From positions 43,461,970-43,525,969 of the forward strand of contig NC_057718.1 in assembly GCF_004010195.1 (NCBI RefSeq): a DNA stretch of 64,000 nucleotides, written 5' to 3'. The notes under the pieces were generated by a model. That model worked only from the letters and a program-made list of their open reading frames with translations, searched no databases and was not told where the DNA came from. The translations under genes and the position numbers were made by a program. The DNA is from Chiloscyllium plagiosum. Lineage: Eukaryota. Positions 6,311-34,189 of the stretch are shown piece by piece (position 1 is the stretch's first letter; each line of letters starts with the position of its first letter).

Positions 6311-7297
6311 TAAAGTGAACATGAATATTATAAATCACTGGCTATGTTATTTAATTCTGCCACTGGGTAACTGGGCACTCCCAATTCCCTATTTCCTGAG
6401 GTGTTACGTCCCAGCTTATCACCGTTGCCACCATCTCTGCAACTGCTGAGGTGGAGACGAATGCAGAGCCATCTCAAATTCACTCCTTTCTCCCTGGTGT
6501 TTTCCGCTGTCCTTTTCCTGCAAGGAAGGAAGACACCAATGTGTGTGAGCTGTGGATTGTTTTTAGGAGATTGAAGGATCACACTTGTGGAGGACCACCA
6601 AGGGATTGCTGTAGGATTGGTATGAGCAACAGCACTATTCTGTCAGATGCAGATATGGCAAGGTGCCTGAAAGGACAGGGCTAGGTTTACCCATAAAGCT
6701 TACTAATATGAGGAGTGATGTGTTGGAGAATGTTGGAGATGGCAGACCCTAGGAGGTTTGTACTCAAAAGAATTGTGCAACTTGGTTTTCCTGCCAGGTC
6801 AGGTCATTACACCCACTATGTGGCACTAAAAGAGCCACATTCATAGTTCTGGCCTGCTCTGTAACTTTCAGTCATATATGATAGTTTTCTAAGATTGCCA
6901 AGTACAAAGAAATCATGTCCACTCAACTCTGACAAATAATTTAAAAATTGCCAGTTGTCTGAAGAAGTTTCAAATAATATACACATGTCCATGTACACAG
7001 CAATAATAAAATTGGTCAGATATATTGAATTGTAAGGCATTCTGAAGTATGCACAAGTTAGATTCTTGTCGTGGATTTAATTTGATACTAATTAATTTGA
7101 ATTAGGTATTTAGGTTTCAAATATAAAGTTCTCTGATCTGTGGGCACACTTTCCCCACCTTGCTGTCTCTTAACTAACAGAGAAAACAGCCTTTTCTCTT
7201 GGCAGATCACAGCAGCCATTGTTCTGTCTATTTATCTGTCTATTTCATATTCTAATTCATACTTGTACAAAGTAACTAATTAACTAACTAAGCAGAG

Positions 7298-8256
7298 ATG
7301 GCTGGGCAGGTGATATGTTGTTGCTGTATGATGTGGGAGCTGGCTGATCCCATTGTGAACGGCAGTGACCACATCTGCAGCAAGTGTTGGTTGCTGGAAG
7401 AACTCCGGATCAGAGTTGATGATCTGGAATCTGAGCTTCAAACACTGCGGCACATCCGGGAGGGGGAGAGTTACCTGGATGCTTTGTTTCAGGAGGCAGT
7501 CACACCTGGGAGATTAAGTAATTCACATTCAGCTAGTGATCAGGCACAAAAGAGTGTGACTGTAAGTGAGGCAGGTAGGGGGAACCGGAGTTCAGGAGTG
7601 GAGGAGCCTCAGCCCTTGACCTTGTCCAACAGGTACGAGATTCTTGCTCCCTGTTCGGATGAGGAAAAGGGCTCTGGACAGGATGAGCCAACTGACCAAG
7701 GCACCATGGTCCAGAAGGCCAATCAAGAGGGGGGAGCTAATAGACAAGTAGTGGTTATAGGGGATTCTATAATTAGGGGGACAGATAGTATCCTTTGCAA
7801 GCCGGATCGGGAGTCTCGCATGGTGTGTTGCCTGCCCGGTGCCAGGGTACGAGACATCTCCGACCGTCTTGAAAGGATATTGGAGCGGGAGGGGGAGGAT
7901 CCAGTTGTTGTGGTCCACGTTGGTACCAACAACTTAGGCAAGACTAGGGTGGGGACCTGTTTGGGCATTACGAAACACTAGGCAGGAAATTGAAGCACAG
8001 GTCCTCAAGGGTCATGATCTCTGGATTACTGCCCGAGCCACGTGCCAATTGGCATAGGGACAAGAAAATTAGGCAAGTAAACACGTGGCTAAGGGATTGG
8101 TGTGGGAAAGAGGGATTCCACTTCATGGGGCATTGGCATCAGTTTTGGAACAGGGGGGATCTGTACCGTTGGGACGGTCTCCACCTGAACCGATCAGGTA
8201 CCAATGTTCTAGCGAAGAGGATAAATAGGGTGGTCAGTAGGACTTTAAACTTCTGA
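7298..8256 (+). mobile_element. CR1 LINE ORF1: zinc finger/leucine zipper plus SGNH/GDSL esterase, one frameshift near 7960-7990
   Basis: CxxC...CxxC followed by LEELRIRVDDLESELQTL; esterase blocks VVVIGDSIIRG, VVVHVGTNN and WDGLHLN, the known CR1 ORF1 architecture. Confidence 0.92.
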
Positions 8257-8424
8257 GTTGGGGGGAAGGGAAAGTGAAAGCGACAGGGAGTATGGAGGTA
8301 AATGGCAAGATAAGCAGCAGGATAACATGTTTCCAGGCGGATTTAAAATTGAGGCAGACTGAGAATACAGTAAAAAGCAAGGATAACTTAGGACATATGA
8401 CTTCCAACATCTCTAATGATAAGG

Positions 8425-8663
8425 AAGTTAGCATTAAGGCACTTTACCAGAATGCTCGTAGCATTCATAACAAAGCCGATGAACTAATGGCACAGATAAT
8501 AGTGAATGATTATGATGTAGTAGGCATCACAGAGACTTGGTTACAGGGGGGTCAGGACTGGCAGTTAAACCTCCATGGTCTTTCAACTTATCGAAAAGAC
8601 AGAGAGGTGGGCAGAGGGGGTGGGGTTGCCTTGTTAGTTAAGAACAAAATTAAATCTATGGTA
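8425..8663 (+). mobile_element. CR1 ORF2 N-terminal APE endonuclease fragment, truncated
   Basis: LYQNARSIHNK..EL...DYDVVGITETWL...YRKDREVGRGGGVALLVK, then an abrupt break into a CT-rich tract. Confidence 0.9.
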
Positions 8664-8666
8664 TTG

Positions 8667-8762
8667 CTCTCTCTCGCCCCCATCTCTCTCTCTCTCTCTC
8701 TCTTCCTGCCCACTGTTTCCCCTCTCTCTCTTGCCCCCAACTGCTTCTCTTTACCCCTTTCC
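8667..8762. repeat. CT-rich simple repeat
   Basis: (CT)n runs visible directly. Confidence 0.8.
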
Positions 8763-9209
8763 CTGCACACAAAAACAAACATGCCTAAATCATCAAAGAC
8801 TGCATAATTTCAGTGCTAATCTTGGGTGTTACTGAGCATAATGATCATTTCATCAGTTTCATCGTCCTTAGGCAAGCACCTGCAATCATGGTGGGTCTTG
8901 CACTTTTGTCAGTAGCCCACAACTGAAATAAAATTTGAGTGTTTGGTAATTAAAAATTTTGGTTAAAACTATCCTGAAGCAAGTGCTGATGTGATAATCC
9001 TATCAAACAGATTTATTTTCAGGGGAGCACAATTACTGCCTGGAACTTGCACTGGCTTTCCACTGAGCCTTTTAATAAGATTTGTATTTGAATTATTCAT
9101 AGTTTTAAACTGAGTACTAACAGCTCTTTCGAATTTGATTTAAGCTTCTCAGGTTCTTTTTGCAGAATTTTTGCAATTGGAGTAATTGTGATTTACCTAA
9201 CTCATCACC

Positions 9210-26403: not shown

Positions 26404-27701
26404 TACTGAGGCAAAATGAGGTGAATTTTTAACATGCCATAGAAATGAGGTTGGAGATGGAATAGTCAGGAAAGGGAAACACCATTGAAATGGGCTCCCC
26501 GATACTGTTCCAGCTCGAGCCAACTTTACCAAGACCATGCTGTCAGAGGAAACCTCTACTCTTGCAACCTCAGTGTCTTTGCTAAGAGCTTTCTTTGTGC
26601 CTTCCCTACTCCCAGTCTGACAGCTTGTGTTCCATAACTTCCAACTCCATAAGGCTTGGCAATTCACATTTTCCTGAGCAACCAGGGCGTGGTAGCTCAA
26701 CAACCAGCCCCTCCACTCCCACTCCAGCCCAGTGACTGAGTCTTCACCAGCCCCCACCCTATCCTGGCCACACAGGTCTCTCCTGCCTGGACATTGCCCC
26801 CTTGTTGGTGCCACTCACTTTCTTGCTTCTACTCCAATCAGAAACTACTTCTGTTCACATTTACTCCTGACAGGTTCACCAGTGGACCAAGGTTAACAGC
26901 GTCTTATTGAAGAAGCAGCTCCTCAGAGATTCCAACTTTTCCCTATGTGGGGATAACTTTCACCCATTATTCAACCAGTGATTTATTTTCCCTGATGGTT
27001 GCTGGGGTGAATTCACCTGCTGTCCCCATGCATTTTGAGTGCAGCATAGGTTGTCCCACAAGGTTGTGGGTTAAAGTGTAAGATTTGCTTATTTTACCTT
27101 CTTTCTCTGCCAGTACTCTGGGTTGCCATATTTGAACCATTGGTAGCATGCTCCTACCAGTCATTAAGGCCAACACTCCATTGCTTCTGTGAGAGTGTTA
27201 GAGAGTCCTTGAAGCATTTTGTTTGTCCTGGAATAGTGTTTCTGGAGCTGCACTGGAGTGCTTGGGGTACTGGCTTCAAAATAAATGCTAGCATTTGTCC
27301 AAATCTTCCTCGCTGATTTTTAATTAAACCAAATCTAGTGGTACAATGCAGAGCTTATTCAGATGTGGTCAATTAGCAATTCTATTGCTGAGTATTACCA
27401 GCTCAATTCCATTATCACAGAAAGTATTAGTTACATTCCTTTTATTTTGAAGTTTGACTTTTCCAATACCAAACTGGCCCCTTCCCAAATTATGCCCTTC
27501 AGCAATAATTTAGTCAAACATCAGTAAGTCCAGAATTTTAGCCTTAAGTTCCACTCCTCACAAAGCCTGAAAATTCATCATACCTGTTCTCATGAATCTC
27601 AGTGGGCTTCCTATCCTTCATGCCTCCTCACATCAAACGTGCTGCCATATAGTTGTCCTTGTATTCCAGTTGAAAACCCAAAAGATGGACATACAAACCC
27701 A

Positions 27702-27886
27702 AGTATGTTGGACTGTCACTTTAAGACTCTGATCACATGGCACAATAATATGATCATTAACCATTTTGGAGGGAATCAGCTTAGTCTCACTTGCTGCCCT
27801 ATAGAGAGAACACTTCATATAATCTATCTGCTACTATTGTTAAACACTGTTTCCTATCCTTCTTGAAATGTAATGCAAGAAAAAAA
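27702..27886 (+). mobile_element. 5' LTR of Gypsy element 1, followed by a decayed PBS at 27888-27898
   Basis: 27704-27817 aligns with 32000-32111 (about 78% by hand alignment; ctgtcactttaaga, ccattttggagg, cttgctgcc, gaacac). tagcaactagg resembles the Gypsy PBS tggcgacgagg after CpG decay. Confidence 0.8.
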
Positions 27887-28040
27887 CTAGCAACTAGGAT
27901 AAAACTGCTTCGAGATCCAGCAGATGAACCCACTGGTGCATCAACAAATAAACAGAATTGTGACCCTCACTTCAGAACCCAGAGGTACTTTGTTAAAAAC
28001 AACAGAAGAAATCATAGCCGTTACTGCTTCACCGAAACAG

Positions 28041-28505
28041 ATAGTCATGGAGTCACACATCATGGAAACAGACCCTTTGGTCCCACTCACTCAGGCCGAC
28101 CAGACATCCCAACCAGATCTAATCCCATTTGCCAGCTTTTGGCCCATATCCCTCTGAACTCCTCTTAATCATGTACCCATCCAGAAGCATTTTAACTGTT
28201 GCAATTGTACCTGCCTCCATAACTTCCTCTGCAGTTTATTCCATGCATGCACCAACCTCTGCATGAAAACGTTACCTCTCAGGTCATTTTTAAATCTTTC
28301 CTCTCTCACCTTATACCAACACCTTCAGTTTTGGACTCCTGCATGCTGGGAAAGAGACCATTTGTCCTAATATCCTATCCATATCCCTCATGATTTTATA
28401 AAGCTCTATAAGGTCACCCCTCAGCCTCTGAATCTCCAGGGAAAGAAAGCTCCAGCCTATTCAACCTCTCCTCACAACTCAAACTCTCTAGTCCCAGAAC
28501 ATTCT
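28041..28505 (-). mobile_element. CR1 3' end inserted in the Gypsy leader
   Basis: Reverse complement of the same CR1 3' end as 2540-2980 (catggaaacagaccctt...ataaggtcacccctcagcctct). Confidence 0.9.
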
Positions 28506-28764
28506 TGAAAATGGGTAAAAATAGTAAAGAATTTATATCAGGGAATGGTTGAACAATGCTGAAGAAGCTTTCCACATGCTTTATTCTGAAGGAACACTGC
28601 AACAAGTATCCTGCATAGAGGGAATTGTTTTGACCTATGGATGTAGACTCGAAAGAAAAGGTAGTCTCAAAAGTACCATGTCTTACAGGGAAGACATGAG
28701 GCAGTGTTCAAATTTTCATTTTGTATTATGCTATGCAAGCCTTTCCATTTAAAAAAGTAAGAAA

Positions 28765-30335
28765 ATACTGGTGTTGTACTACTGTATGATCAAAATACAG
28801 AGAGCTGAAACTCATACTATTCTATTCTATCCCATACTGAGATTCTATTATTTTGTTCAAGCTAACAAAATTGAAGCAGATAGGGTTGTCCTTGCATTTG
28901 TTAATATTATGGGGGGGGGGGAGCTTTTAAACTTCTGTAATGATTGGAACCATGTCAGGGTGAATCTCATTGACTATTAGATCCTTGATTGGGTGGTTAA
29001 CCCAGGTCAATCAGGGAGTCCTGGCTGACAGAAATTCACAAGGTCTTCTCAGTTGAGAGACTAGCTTTGAGCTGGCTAATCATTGCCCATTTTCAATGAA
29101 CATGTAAATAAAAGGTGACTTGGTGATAGGATATCAGCCTTTGTGCAGTTATTTCACCTTCTAAGGAGTCTGGCACAGCCAGAGAAACTAGATTTCAAAA
29201 CCAACAAAGAAATGGTAGGAACCCGACAGAACCATTTTCATCCAAACCATTGGTGATTAGTGAAAGGTTCAGGCTTCACTAACACAACCAACACAGTGCT
29301 TAATCTGTTTCCAAGCTTAGAAGAATTTTAAAGAAGTTAACAGAATATTATGAATTCAGAGACAACTAATCATGCTATCAGAGACAGACTGCCACGTGGT
29401 TTAAGATGTGAACTAATCCAGGAGAGATTACTGATGGAATGGAATCTGGACTTACAGAAAGCACTAGAAATAGTAGTCTTGATGGAACTAGTAGCTAAGG
29501 AGGCTTCTCAACTAATCTTGTGTATGAGTGTCAACAAAATGGTGGCTGAGAGAGTTCACGAAATGGCGGCAACGACGAGCACCAATGCAGATTAAAAACT
29601 GCCATCAGCATGCAAAAGCAGGCCGTGCAACAGCAAATTTATGTTGTAAAGAAGCTGCATGTAGAAACTATGAAACAAAGGGCACATTGACTGGGTTTGT
29701 TTGAGTATGAAACATCAATAGCATACAGCAAACGTACAGAAACCAAAGAGCGAAAACAAAATCAACACAGAACAAAAAGGACATTCGAAAACTAGACTAT
29801 AGTTCAAAGAGGAGTTGTTGTTAAACAAGCTGGCCATTGTTGGTGATACTAACTGATACTGGATTCCCTTACTGAAATGGCAAACCCATGAGCATGGAGG
29901 CAGACTCTGGTGTAGCAGTTTCACTGATACCTGTGGAACAGATGCAGCTGCGTCACATTGTGCTGCAACTCTCAAACGTTGCACTAAGAACATATAGAGA
30001 TGAAGTGGTGCCTTTAAAAGGTTGTAGGAATATGAATGTTCTAATATATGGTCAGTCTGAAGCTTGGCCTTACACATTACCAAAGGAAATCTTTAAGCTT
30101 TTTTAATAGGAACATGGTTGAAGAAAATAAAACTTAATTGGATGGAAGTAAATCACCTTTCAGATTCTGAGAGTGATCCGTCACAAATTCTAAAGAAACA
30201 TGCCATTTTTTCAATGGGGATCTGGGAAGCATGGAAATGATAGCTGTCAAGTTGAAAACAAAATATGAGAATCAAGCAAAATGGTTGAGTTGCAAGCCTA
30301 GATTAGTGCCTTATGCAATCGGACCAAAGGTTGAT
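28765..30335 (+). mobile_element. Gypsy element 1: gag, aspartic protease and start of RT, all decayed
   Basis: YFVQANKI...IMGG / LLRSLAQPEK...HFHP.PLVISERFR...IRDRL..GLRCELIQERLL..LDLQKALEI; double zinc-knuckle remnant ~29600-29700; MEADSGVAVSLI (D-S-G at 29903-29911); WLKKIKLNW; KPRLVPYAIGPKV. Confidence 0.92.
28936..29156 (+). mobile_element. Solo LTR (221 bp) nested in gag
   Basis: TG...CA termini, AATAAA at ~29107, flanked by acttc/ccttc; removing it rejoins gag as AFKLLRSL. Confidence 0.85.
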
Positions 30336-31842
30336 GGAGAAATCTAAGCATGTAAGAAGTGTGAATCAAACCAGGATAGCACTTTATTAAGCCATACAAT
30401 TAATCTGCTTGAGAAGATTCATAGTGATAACCACACCTGTGACCTTGGTAATTCAAGAGTTCATCTGATAATTGCAGCCTTGCTTATGACCTTCAAGCAA
30501 AAGCTTAATGATCAGGAAACACAGAATAATGATACAGCCATCTTGCATTGTGAAATTAGCAGATCAGATACAGCAGTGCAATGGATAGAAGGATCCACTC
30601 GATTTCAGCTTGCTGCCAAGTTTGAAGTGAACCATCATTGAGATGGTTATTCATGGGCCTAAACCAGAAGATAGTAGTAGATATACTTGAGGTGTTGGAG
30701 ACCAACAAACCTGTGCTGCCTTGAAAGTGAGTACTATTCTGGTACTTCAGAAGGGTTTCAGAGCAAGGGAGCTGACGAAGGCAACACCATCACTCTACAC
30801 TGTGAACTTGCTAAGCCTGATCCTCCTATAGAGTGGAAAAATGAGACTGCGGTATTTCATCTCAGTGTCAAGTACAAAGTAAACAAGTGGGTTCTGTTGC
30901 TGAATTGTCTGTCTGCAATCTGAAACAAGAAGATGCAAGAGAATATGCCTGTGATTCAGAAGATCAACACACCCCAGCTCCACTTAAAATAAAAGAAAAG
31001 CCAGTGGTGTTCATTAAATCTTTGGATACCATTGTTGGGCAAGGGAGAGGAATGATTACACTGGATTGTGAATCTGAATAAAGCATGATGTGGTTCTTGC
31101 TTCAAGTGACAAATCTGAATGACTACATGCTGGAAAAGCACTTTGTTTTATTGTACATGATCTGAATAAAAGTGATGAGTTAGTGACATAGGCACCAGTA
31201 GAGCAAGTGCCAAGGTTGTCATCCCACATCTGAACATCAGAGTTTCAAAAAGGCAAAAGAGCACAAAGATTAAAAAAAGCAAAAAGGCACCTTTTAAATG
31301 CACACTTTCTTATGAAAGTATTACTGGACAGGGCTGTTAGTAGAAGGCAATGAATGACTTGAGGTATTCAATGTTGGCCAAAAATACATTCTTAAATTAA
31401 AGAAATAGCTCTTTCAGTTATTGGAGAAGTAACCTCAGTTTGAAAGCCTCATTGATGGTGAAAGAAAAACTGGCAGAAATCACAAAGCAATGGAAAAAAG
31501 TGGTGGTGATAGTGGGTGAAGAGATTGTACTAAACTGTGTACCTCTAAGCCTGTTTCTTTAGTGCAGTTGCTTAAAGATGACAGAGGAATTAACAAACGT
31601 AACATGTGAAATATCTCAGCAAAGGACTATAAACAAATTTATAATTCATCAAGTCACACAAAGTACTTGAGAGAGTATGCATATGAAACAGAGACTTCTA
31701 AAATGTTTTTTTAATAGTGGTGGTAAACCAACACAAAAACTGAAGAGAAAGATACTGCTGTTTTTAAATGTGAAACAGAATAGCCAGCAAAAAGTTAGTC
31801 TGAAAATAAGGGAATGGCCAGAAAAGCAATGAGAAAAATAAA
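30333..31842 (+). pseudogene. OBSCN: Intronless obscurin-like tandem I-set Ig domain retrocopy fragment (about 7 domains, first and last partial)
   Basis: TFKQKLNDQETQNNDTAILHCEISRSDTAVQW; EMVIHGPKPEDSSRYT*GVGDQQT; EGNTITLHCELAKPDPPIEWK; GSVAELSVCNLKQEDAREYACDSEDQHT; EKPVVFIKSLD..MITLDCE; FKCTLSYES; GEEIVLNC..SKP; EEKDTAVFKCETE. Ig call is firm; OBSCN rather than OBSL1/titin is from recalled repeat style. Confidence 0.8.
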
Positions 31843-31981
31843 CAGATGCCTGAGGTCCTCTGACAGCCATACCAGAACATTGACATCTTCCAGAACACCT
31901 GACCTCTAGCTGTTATGTATATGATTGCAAATATTGTGAATTGTTCTCATTGCAGCAACCTCTGATATAAAGGGGGAGGGA
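31843..31981 (+). mobile_element. Gypsy element 1 integrase C-terminal tail and polypurine tract
   Basis: ccagaacattgacatcttccagaacacctgacctctag can be read as a CpG-decayed RYPER.R.PPERLDL* pol ending (inference); PPT aaagggggaggga at 31969-31981 directly precedes TG. Confidence 0.75.
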
Positions 31982-32115
31982 TGTTTTATATTATGTAAAT
32001 ATGTTGTGCTGTCACTTTAAGAATCTGACCATATGCAAGATGTTGATGTCATTGGCCATTTTGGAGGAAATCAGTTTAGCCTTGCTTGCTGCCTTGCAGC
32101 GTGAACACCTCCAAC
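31982..32115 (+). mobile_element. 3' LTR of Gypsy element 1 (3' part lost or interrupted)
   Basis: Begins TGTT right after the PPT; direct repeat of 27704-27817. Confidence 0.8.
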
Positions 32116-34189
32116 TATTTACCAGAATGAAATAAGCTTTGGAATTTGCAGCCAAATCTTGGATTGGAGGCTCTACAATGGAATGGCCAGCAATGAACTG
32201 TCCTGTCCAGAAAAGTAAGTGTTAAACTGCTGTGTCAGTACTTTAGGACCTTGGAGCAACCTTGTGATGATGTCACAGAGCTTTTCCCACATTTCTTACT
32301 ATTTTTCTCACTGGGAATAATTAGCACAGTGTGGGCGGAATTAGGAAAGAGAGAGAAAAAGAGGAAAACACACAGAGCTAGGCTGAACCTTGAAGTCTAG
32401 CCATTTGAAAACCAGCGTGTCGAGCATACTGTCTAAAGTTAGGCATGAAAGTTCATGGAATAGTGTTTTAATATTGTATCAAGTGAGATTAAGGCCTGAC
32501 ATAGACTTGAATACCATATATTGTAGCATTGAGTCTTATTAGATCTATGATATAGAGAAGCCCAAATCTGAAGACAGTCTCTGACCTTGCCTCCTTATTG
32601 ACTAGTCTATCTTGAACCCAAACTTGTGGATGTGAGATAAAATCAGATTATGTCAGACAATGGATAATATAGAAGCCCAGGTAACTGTAGGCCATCTACT
32701 ACTCACAGGAGATAGAAAGCTGTGAAGCTAGCAGGATTTAGCAATGCTATAGGCCATTCAGGCCTGCAACAATGGATAAGTGTTCTCAGGTAGGAGAATT
32801 CCAGAAGCAATCCTAAGCTAAAAGCCTAATTATTCAAATGATTCAAAATTAATTTATGTCCAGTTTTGCACCAGTTGGGTGCAATTAAACAACTTATTGC
32901 TGGCTCACGCAAGGGTGGGTAAAGGAAATTTCAACTCAGCTGGATATATTGACAATATTTTTCCATCTTCTATGCCTTGACACTAAGATTAACAAACATA
33001 ATGTAAAATATATGATTAATTTACGGATGGAAGTTTAAGGTAGAAAGCATCATCTGATTTCCACTATGGTAATACCATTTTACAGCAATATGGAAAACCA
33101 GAATAGACCATAACCATAAGAGTATTTTTTTTTGTTTCAAAATGCTGTTATATACCAAGTTGAAAATATTATGGTAATGATCTGTATAGAATGTAATGTG
33201 GAAAATTTATTTTTAGTGGAATAGAGCCAATGAAAATATGCTCCAACACTGACCTTAGTTATTTATACGATATATTTTGCCTGATTAAACCATGCTACAA
33301 ATATATATGCAATATTTATCTAAAATCCTCAGTTCATGAAAATTTAAATGCTATGTCACATTTTTAGGGAAAATAGTTTATCAAGAAATATTGCCTTATT
33401 AGAATAGTGATATTTGGCTTTGAAATTACATTTGAGTTTCTCTTCTTCGATAGAGACAATTTTCTCCCAGTAAATAAACTGTCATGCCACTTGTTATATA
33501 TTGTTGAATTCCTCATACTCCGAGGATTCCACTGATATGAAACATGTATATGTTAGATTGGTACTGGTATCTTTAGTGGGCTGAGTAGGACAAATGTGTT
33601 TCTTCATGGCTGCAATAATGTGATAAAAGGAAATTGGCTGTTCATCAGCTGTTGGTTGTGTTAAGACAGTAGAGATGGTAAGCATCTTTTGGTTACTCAT
33701 ACCAACTTTATACCAATTGACTTTCATTTTTCATTGTTTCCTGTGTAACTGATAACACATTAAATGCATAACAATATTTTGATAAGAAAGCTGTTGCATA
33801 GGTTATCCATTTCTCCAGACCTTTATTATATGTCATCAAGACTGTAATTAATTTGCATTTGTCTACAAATTCTCAATGATGCTTTTAAAATTTATAAATT
33901 TGTTTTCATTCAAAATGAATAAGTAAATGCACTTCTCATATTCATGAGAGTAAGTTTCTACGATGACCACCTGGCATCTGATAATCTTAAGTATCTTCAA
34001 AGCATTCCAGACAGAGGCTTGGGCTGACCATTCTTTGGCACCAGAATGTGATATGGATAAATCAGTTCTTCATATTTTGAGCTAACATTTATATGTTAAA
34101 TCTTTGCATTTAATTTAAACATTGCTTGGGTAATGCTCTTTTTCTCTGCTGCGTATTTTCTAAACAAAGGTGATGTTGAATTGAGATCA

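Follow-up and report, generated by a model that had tools for sequence, protein, structure and literature searches.

The window analysed here, a stretch of 64,000 nucleotides (nt) of the Chiloscyllium plagiosum genome (assembly GCF_004010195.1, contig NC_057718.1, positions 43,461,970 to 43,525,969 of the forward strand), contains at 27686-32111 a decayed long terminal repeat (LTR) retrotransposon of the Ty3/Gypsy type, a fossil and non-autonomous copy that carries coding sequence of the muscle protein obscurin. The element keeps its LTRs, gag, protease, the first residues of the reverse transcriptase (RT), the tail of pol and a polypurine tract (PPT). The RT core, RNase H and integrase are absent from the window, and in their place stands ~1.5 kb of intronless sequence, hereafter the cargo, that encodes immunoglobulin (Ig) domains. 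Features are listed in Table 1; positions are those of the window unless a contig (C) or locus (L) is named.

The backbone of the element was recognised largely by comparison with other copies in the genome. Direct repeats at 27701-27816 and 31997-32111 are identical at 77.8% of 117 columns (79% and 85% when split into two blocks), in agreement with the ~78% given for paired LTRs in a preliminary description of this DNA, and both are LTRs of one element family as is shown by other genomic copies in which this repeat flanks the same internal sequence. The 5′ LTR matches the LTRs of other copies over 27700-27873/27891, and the last ~65 nt of the 3′ LTR are lost or diverged; immediately beyond, at 32112-32260, no likeness is left to the 5′ LTR or to the LTR ends of other copies, reflecting deletion or later replacement. 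No convincing primer-binding site (PBS; a site complementary to a tRNA) or target-site duplication was found in the window or in copy L005. A remnant of gag lies at 29150-29710 and includes remnants of two CCHC knuckles at ~29590-29690; the decayed CCHC stretch at 29528-29704 is an open frame in copy L029, where it reaches Pfam zf-CCHC exactly at the cut-off (20.8 bits). The segment KPRLVPYAIGPKVDGEI at 30290-30344 aligns to the RT N-terminus of relatives that lack the cargo. When the window's own protein pieces were compared with Pfam there was no significant match for gag, protease or RT, and Ig domains were matched only below threshold (I-set, E 0.004); the identification of the parts therefore rests on the relatives. 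Thus, of the element first described, the D-S-G motif of the protease, the start of RT, the pol tail and the PPT can be read directly and the CCHC knuckles persist as remnants, although the window's own pieces have no significant Pfam match, and the statement that all cis signals are present is not supported, as no convincing PBS was found and the 3′ LTR is truncated.

The chimaera is not a single event but a family that occupies at least 24 loci. The genome searched comprises 3.56 Gb in one assembly, in which first-look filters may miss matches, and family copies were compared within ~3-4 kb around each locus. With the cargo as query (30333-31842) there were 51 matches: one was the window itself, eight were of exon size and lay on contig C5, and the remaining 42, at 64-72% identity, were spread over 23 other loci; the gag-protease part gave 3631 first-look candidates and the LTR 105, of which 40 were scored in each case. 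The junction of RT stub and cargo aligned unbroken in eight copies (L003, L005, L006, L007, L008, L014, L016 and L019), an internal junction of the cargo, Ig2-A (see below), in nine (L002, L003, L004, L007, L010, L014, L017, L018 and L019), and the junction of cargo and tail in eight (six of the loci compared, together with C2:50914675 and C18:62369628). Each copy examined across a junction, by pairwise BLAST and alignment, has the same junction as the window. The capture thus did not take place at this locus, which is one of at least 24 that share both junctions.

Relatives without cargo define where the backbone was left and where it was resumed. They align to the window as far as 30311-30344 and then continue into RT, L022 doing so to 30366 by way of a 7-nt gap. 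At the opposite end, the region 31800-32115 had 39 non-self matches, of which 19 start at query base 23-24 (window 31822-31823) and six at query base 1-10, cargo-bearing copies among them; the clustering of starts at 31822-31823 indicates that the backbone resumes at 31822. The RT core, RNase H and integrase have been replaced by the cargo, not interrupted by it. Among the cargo-less copies, L029 has an RNase H match (PF17917, 1e-14) and weak RVT_1 matches, and the RT piece of L032 matches in the PDB only Ty3 Gag-Pol/RT structures (7q5b, 9.6e-6; 4ol8, 1.7e-5); the RNase H piece had no match in the PDB, and a word-based protein search with the decayed RT piece found none. Such relatives are putative autonomous partners of the cargo-bearing family within one genome. 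In L030 (C19:30273153-30277287), which is also cargo-less, no more than ~100 nt separate a partial RT from the pol tail and LTR. As this is an internal deletion of the same backbone, pol-deleted derivatives arose more than once in the family.

Judged by sequence, the parent of the cargo is the obscurin gene on contig C5, with over 30 Ig exons (plus strand, 109.17-109.50 Mb). The six parental exons, designated A, B, C, D, Ig1 and Ig2, are 267-270 nt long, open and of phase 1, encode one Ig domain each and have AG/GT borders (six donors and five acceptors were read in one comparison, and the acceptor of exon D separately). For the protein of exon B the best match is human obscurin domain 2eny (E 4.6e-27), and its identity to OBSCN proteins is 59-70%; the cargo segments are 79.5-82.5% identical to the parent exons. 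The Ig2 exon with ~2 kb of flanking intron occurs twice at 94% identity, 515 kb apart, in L011 (C5:108800860-108804099) and L013 (C5:109316171-109319410); the L011 copy lies upstream, outside the mapped range of Ig exons of the gene, and has the appearance of a stray segmental duplication that arose long after the element family.

The cargo (30345-31822) consists of five whole Ig exons and two complementary parts of the sixth, exon D, and thus of six domain equivalents in place of the approximately seven domains counted previously; its Ig frames in the window are broken by stops and frameshifts. At six of six cargo junctions the exon ends abut at exact C5 exon borders with no intron letters, and the cargo therefore came from spliced RNA, in keeping with the proposal that an intronless array of the obscurin family stands in place of pol. 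It holds exons A, B, C, D, Ig1 and Ig2 only, with no poly(A) of its own. It could be argued that this is a processed obscurin pseudogene, inserted into a Gypsy copy by the machinery of a long interspersed nuclear element (LINE), or a capture of genomic DNA, as processed pseudogenes are common and A-rich sequence directly follows the cargo. That A-rich stretch, however, belongs to the backbone, being present in cargo-less copies, and the cargo ends without poly(A) or duplication, which makes either explanation very improbable. Indeed a LINE retrocopy within an LTR element was rejected because pol is missing on both sides of the cargo and the same junctions recur in at least 23 other loci, DNA-level capture because the six cargo junctions contain no introns, and a chance pairing of unrelated LTR-like repeats because the same LTR borders the same internal sequence elsewhere. 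These results agree with the preliminary description on the three matters it had singled out for checking, since there is no intron sequence and no cargo poly(A), and the LTRs are those of one element.

Table 1. Features of the chimaeric element, in positions of the window
Feature	Position	Strand	Remarks
5′ LTR	27686-27878	+	Starts TG, ~190 nt; extent from family alignments
Leader after LTR, presumed PBS region	27879-28042	+	Homologous to leader of copies L022 and L026
Later insertion, unrelated dispersed repeat, foreign to element	28043-28512	+	470 nt
Leader and decayed gag	28513-29710	+	67-71% identity to many family copies
Decayed aspartic protease	29800-30110	+	D-S-G read at 29903-29911, frame 29876-30106; region conserved in family copies
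RT N-terminal stub	30111-30344	+	Ends ...PKVDGEI, written VPYAIGPKVDGEI at 30344
5′ junction microhomology GGCAGAA	30334-30344	+	Common to RT stub and exon D; three-way comparison
Piece 1, exon D 3′ part (exon positions ~126-267)	30345-30477	+	79.5% to C5:109250592-858
Piece 2, exon Ig1	30478-30733	+	80.9% over 251 nt to C5:109282810-109283076; abuts last base of exon D
Piece 3, exon Ig2	30734-30995	+	79.5% over 259 nt to C5:109317644-910
Ig2-A reverse-order (back-splice type) junction	30995-30996	+	Last Ig2 base 30995, first A base 30996, gap 0
Piece 4, exon A	30996-31227	+	82.5% over 229 nt to C5:109245366-632
Piece 5, exon B	31228-31464	+	79.9% over 234 nt to C5:109247683-952
Piece 6, exon C	31465-31727	+	80.3% over 239 nt to C5:109248839-109249105; B-C gap 0
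Piece 7, exon D 5′ part (to exon position ~123-126)	31728-31822	+	84% to C5:109250625-717
Pol C-terminal tail / 3′ untranslated part of backbone	31822-31969	+	Common to cargo-less L040, L044, L046, L048, L049, L051 and L030
PPT AAGGGGGAGGGA	31970-31981	+	Read directly; adjoins LTR start at 31982
3′ LTR	31982-32111	+	Starts TG; 130 nt recognisable; aligns with 5′ LTR and L005 LTR from first base

The order of the exons in the cargo is D (3′ part)-Ig1-Ig2-A-B-C-D (5′ part), and their order in the C5 gene, with two neighbouring exons X and E, is X-A-B-C-D-E-Ig1-Ig2. At the Ig2-A junction a downstream donor is joined to an acceptor that lies 72 kb upstream in the genome, and the D-Ig1 junction of the cargo skips at least exon E (C5:109262886-109263132; L055 is C5:109262700-109263300). 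In transcript contigs from four public runs, X is joined to A in all four and Ig1 to Ig2 in three, and E is joined to Ig1 in the one run that shows that junction (L055, L007:1940). Present-day transcripts join E to Ig1 where the cargo joins D to Ig1, which means that the RNA captured was an isoform with exon skipping. The order of the C5 gene recurs in human and orangutan OBSCN (X-A-B-C-D, and B-C-D, two domains, Ig1, Ig2); the shared X-A adjacency and B-C-D...Ig1-Ig2 order mean that this arrangement predates the element family. The exon borders are thus exact but the order is not collinear with the parent. The preliminary description had envisaged capture of a spliced obscurin mRNA, of which the spliced, intron-free nature stands, and a linear mRNA does not fit in three respects: the circular permutation, the reverse-order Ig2-A junction and the splitting of a single exon D.

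It could be argued that the template was nonetheless linear, if at the time of capture the exon block was duplicated in tandem, or Ig1 was preceded by another D-like exon, so that the gene furnished an mRNA of the form D'-Ig1-Ig2-A-B-C-D, from which two switches took the cargo and of which the genomic duplicate was later lost. Obscurin Ig exons do duplicate, as the stray Ig2 exon with intron at C5:108.80 Mb (94% identical) illustrates, and two template switches are the textbook route of capture by LTR elements in the accessible part of a recent review (PMC13317346). There is, however, no paralogue of exon D at either the DNA or the protein level. A DNA search with exon D gave 18 candidates, all of which were scored, and the whole exon occurs only at C5; 11 element copies have the 3′ part, starting at query 91-122, five have the 5′ part, ending at query 96-122, and one short match spans the break. 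With its protein as query no other host exon exceeded 43% identity. Exon D thus appears to be single-copy in the genome. Furthermore, the X-A and B-C-D...Ig1-Ig2 order is common to human and orangutan OBSCN and so older than the family, and two switches, independent of each other and separated by exactly one block, would both have to fall within the same ~8 nt of an exon of 267 nt. A linear template with a lost duplicate is, on these grounds, unlikely.

The two breaks in exon D are the feature of the cargo that exon order does not by itself explain. At the 5′ junction the RT stub of L022 reads GAGGCAGAATTAAAG and exon D reads ATGGCAGAAATC, and letters specific to exon D begin with ATC. At the 3′ junction (31811-31835) the exon D letters extend as far as GGCAGA(AA), after which AAAGCCAATGAG marks the return of the backbone; ...CAGAGGTT/AAAGCC... 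is the sequence of cargo-less copies at this site. Exon D itself reads GGAATGGCAGAAATCAAACC around positions 119-128, and both breaks fall at its positions 119-126, within the same ~8 nt (GGCAGAAA). To within the microhomology, the cargo therefore corresponds to a single full circuit of a circle. Both junctions lie at microhomologies, as copy-choice would give, which upholds the earlier suggestion of two template switches. The six-exon circle measures 1605 nt (535 codons) and has no stop in the parent exons, and the chance that an exit falls within 7 nt of the entry on a circle of this size is ~1%. On our reading of the alignments both junctions also keep the pol and Ig frames in register, for which the chance is 1 in 9, and the founder may, to judge from these frames, have encoded a continuous gag-protease-Ig-tail protein. 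In exon order and breakpoints the cargo therefore corresponds to a single complete lap of a circle of six exons, with an Ig2-to-A back-splice as its closure.

Two further explanations bear on these breaks. In the first, Ig2 was trans-spliced to exon A of a second pre-mRNA, giving a linear RNA with exon repetition and no covalent circle. Such an RNA would have the same precise Ig2-A junction. Trans-splicing is, however, rarer than back-splicing, and it does not account for an exit from exon D at the very point of entry, which renders this route distinctly improbable. In the second, more than one turn of a circular RNA (circRNA) was copied by a rolling-circle process, and the product later collapsed to one unit by recombination between direct repeats. 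A reverse transcriptase can continue past its starting point on a circular template, direct repeats tend to be unstable when retroelements replicate, and on this account, too, the template is a circRNA. Collapse, however, eliminates complete turns and leaves the distance between starting and end points on the circle unchanged, so that an offset of no more than ~8 nt in 1605 remains a coincidence of ~1%; moreover, no copy with more than one turn was seen, the whole of exon D being found only in the C5 parent. We regard rolling-circle copying with collapse as improbable. The lost duplicate and trans-splicing each explain the exon order, but neither these nor the rolling circle explains the coincident breaks.

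The reading we favour, with a rough probability of 0.65, is that RT switched onto a co-packaged obscurin circRNA, copied one lap and switched back, and that the chimaera spread as a non-autonomous element. The RT of an autonomous Gypsy element would, during minus-strand synthesis, have left the element RNA in the pol tail and entered the obscurin circRNA via 'CAGA/AAA', which the tail has in common with exon D. The template would have been the circle A-B-C-D-Ig1-Ig2, 1605 nt in length, with exon E skipped and an Ig2-to-A back-splice, and it would have been copied in the order D 5′ part, C, B, A, Ig2, Ig1, D 3′ part. RT would have halted at the entry point, where the template copied at the start of the lap had already been degraded by RNase H, and, by way of the 7-nt GGCAGAA, would have rejoined the Gypsy RNA close to where the RT sequence begins. 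The product would have possessed LTRs, leader, gag, protease and PPT but not RT, RNase H or integrase, and would have been copied in trans to at least 24 loci, where it then decayed. An exit at the entry point is what would be expected if RNase H had destroyed the template already copied. That the family is a junction-resolved fossil of circRNA capture in this full sense, namely a microhomology hop, one lap ending where RNase H had removed the template, a hop back and an in-frame gag-protease-Ig chimaera, we consider rather probable. It should be emphasized that observation covers how the element is built, its membership of a family, the identity of the parent exons and the exactness of their borders, together with the circular permutation and the coincidence of the breakpoints; the existence of the circRNA, its co-packaging with the element RNA, the direction in which RT switched and the part played by RNase H are what we infer.

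Several points weigh against this mechanism. A circRNA with the Ig2-to-A junction was not observed; no contig bridging Ig2 and A (~L007 1477/1478) was present in four runs compared with L007:1200-2200 at 80% likeness, which is uninformative as contigs drop rare forms. The D-Ig1 junction skips exon E, which present-day linear transcripts include, and the circle thus needs a skipped-exon isoform. A comparison of the X-A intron with the 1.5 kb that follow Ig2 revealed no inverted repeats; those introns are far younger than the event. The explanation of the exit point by RNase H is a model. Finally, the uniqueness of exon D rests on one assembly, in which first-look searches can miss matches, and exon D itself was not listed among the matches when the whole cargo was the query.

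The divergence of the copies is consistent with an old burst. All 15 copies compared are nearer to the parent exons (Kimura two-parameter distance (K2P) 0.18-0.26) than nine of them are among themselves (36 pairs, 0.25-0.39), which is expected if one chimaera burst, its copies decayed independently and the exons stayed conserved. The LTR pair of the window has a K2P of 0.243 over 113 nt. If substitutions accumulated at 0.5-1 x 10^-9 per site and year, the copy would be very roughly 120-240 million years old, and the family appears to have spread long ago (K2P ~0.2).

The nearest known precedent is that of the circRNA-derived pseudogenes described in mouse and human, which are defined by a reverse-order junction (Dong et al. 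2016, Cell Res, PMC4897178). In the mouse there are 33 high-confidence copies of circRFWD2 with LTR sequences enriched in their flanks, and the retro-copying mechanism 'remains mysterious' (PMC4897178). Similar to these pseudogenes, the shark family has a reverse-order exon junction at exact borders, exons of the circle only, no poly(A) and many copies, and in the window itself both the reverse-order junction at exact borders and the restriction to circle exons without poly(A) are found. In contrast with the pseudogenes of Dong et al., whose main text gives no element architecture or junctions, the shark circle lies inside a defined Gypsy-type element in which it replaces pol, its junctions are resolved to a few bases of microhomology, it comprises exactly one turn, it occurs in a cartilaginous fish and it is much older. 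How an endless RNA that lacks poly(A) is reverse-transcribed and integrated was left open in that work, and the shark family offers a concrete and testable answer. If general, copy-choice uptake in the particle of an LTR element followed by spread on the LTRs of that element would be the missing mechanism for circRNA-derived pseudogenes, and its diagnostic signature (one turn, coincident breakpoints and the context of an LTR element) could be searched for in any genome, including among the circRFWD2 copies of the mouse.

Capture of host sequence is exemplified by retroviral oncogenes and by maize Bs1, and to our knowledge the sequence taken up in such LTR-element and retroviral captures is collinear with a linear mRNA. 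In contrast, the exon order of the shark cargo is circularly permuted and its two breakpoints coincide in the host sequence. In plants, LTR elements capture host sequence through abnormal template switching between co-packaged RNAs, according to the accessible part of a 2026 review (PMC13317346). The shark family resembles LTR-element and retroviral captures, as far as that part describes them, in that spliced host RNA replaces internal coding sequence, the product is non-autonomous and mobilised in trans, and the junctions lie at short homologies. Non-autonomous LTR elements that keep gag but lack pol, of the LARD (large retrotransposon derivative) and TRIM (terminal-repeat retrotransposon in miniature) kind, appear in the accessible part of a sugar beet survey (PMC13570524); like these, the shark elements retain LTRs and partial coding sequence, lack RT and integrase, and form subfamilies that amplify with an autonomous partner. 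In that portion of the survey, however, LARD/TRIM-like elements are mostly deletion derivatives or contain anonymous filler, whereas the shark family carries an identifiable host cargo of six exons. Host circRNAs are reported in HIV-1 particles in a 2026 preprint (bioRxiv 10.64898/2026.01.21.700838), and packaging of this kind would supply the step assumed here; the available portion of that preprint concerns HIV-1 virions and reports neither reverse transcription nor genomic capture. In the literature searched we found no account of a circRNA inside a defined LTR element or of an obscurin-carrying retrotransposon, and Obscn features in the accessible part of one paper as an alternatively spliced gene only, not as a source of circRNA. 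This study extends gene capture by LTR retrotransposons, documented mostly in plants and retroviruses, to the cartilaginous fishes, in which it yielded a mobile Ig array of a muscle protein.

The repeat that interrupts the leader at 28043-28512 matches unrelated places in at least nine loci (L006, L008, L010, L015, L028, L037, L040, L042 and L044), the match in L015 being an obscurin intron (L015:1986-2406), and it is missing at the equivalent position of L022. A search of the whole window with Rfam gave no match, and no host gene was recognised in it. The window is repeat-rich, with open frames of 132-229 amino acids at 1915-2313 and 7292-8807 that resemble fragments of LINE reverse transcriptase and of the LINE 5′ open reading frame.

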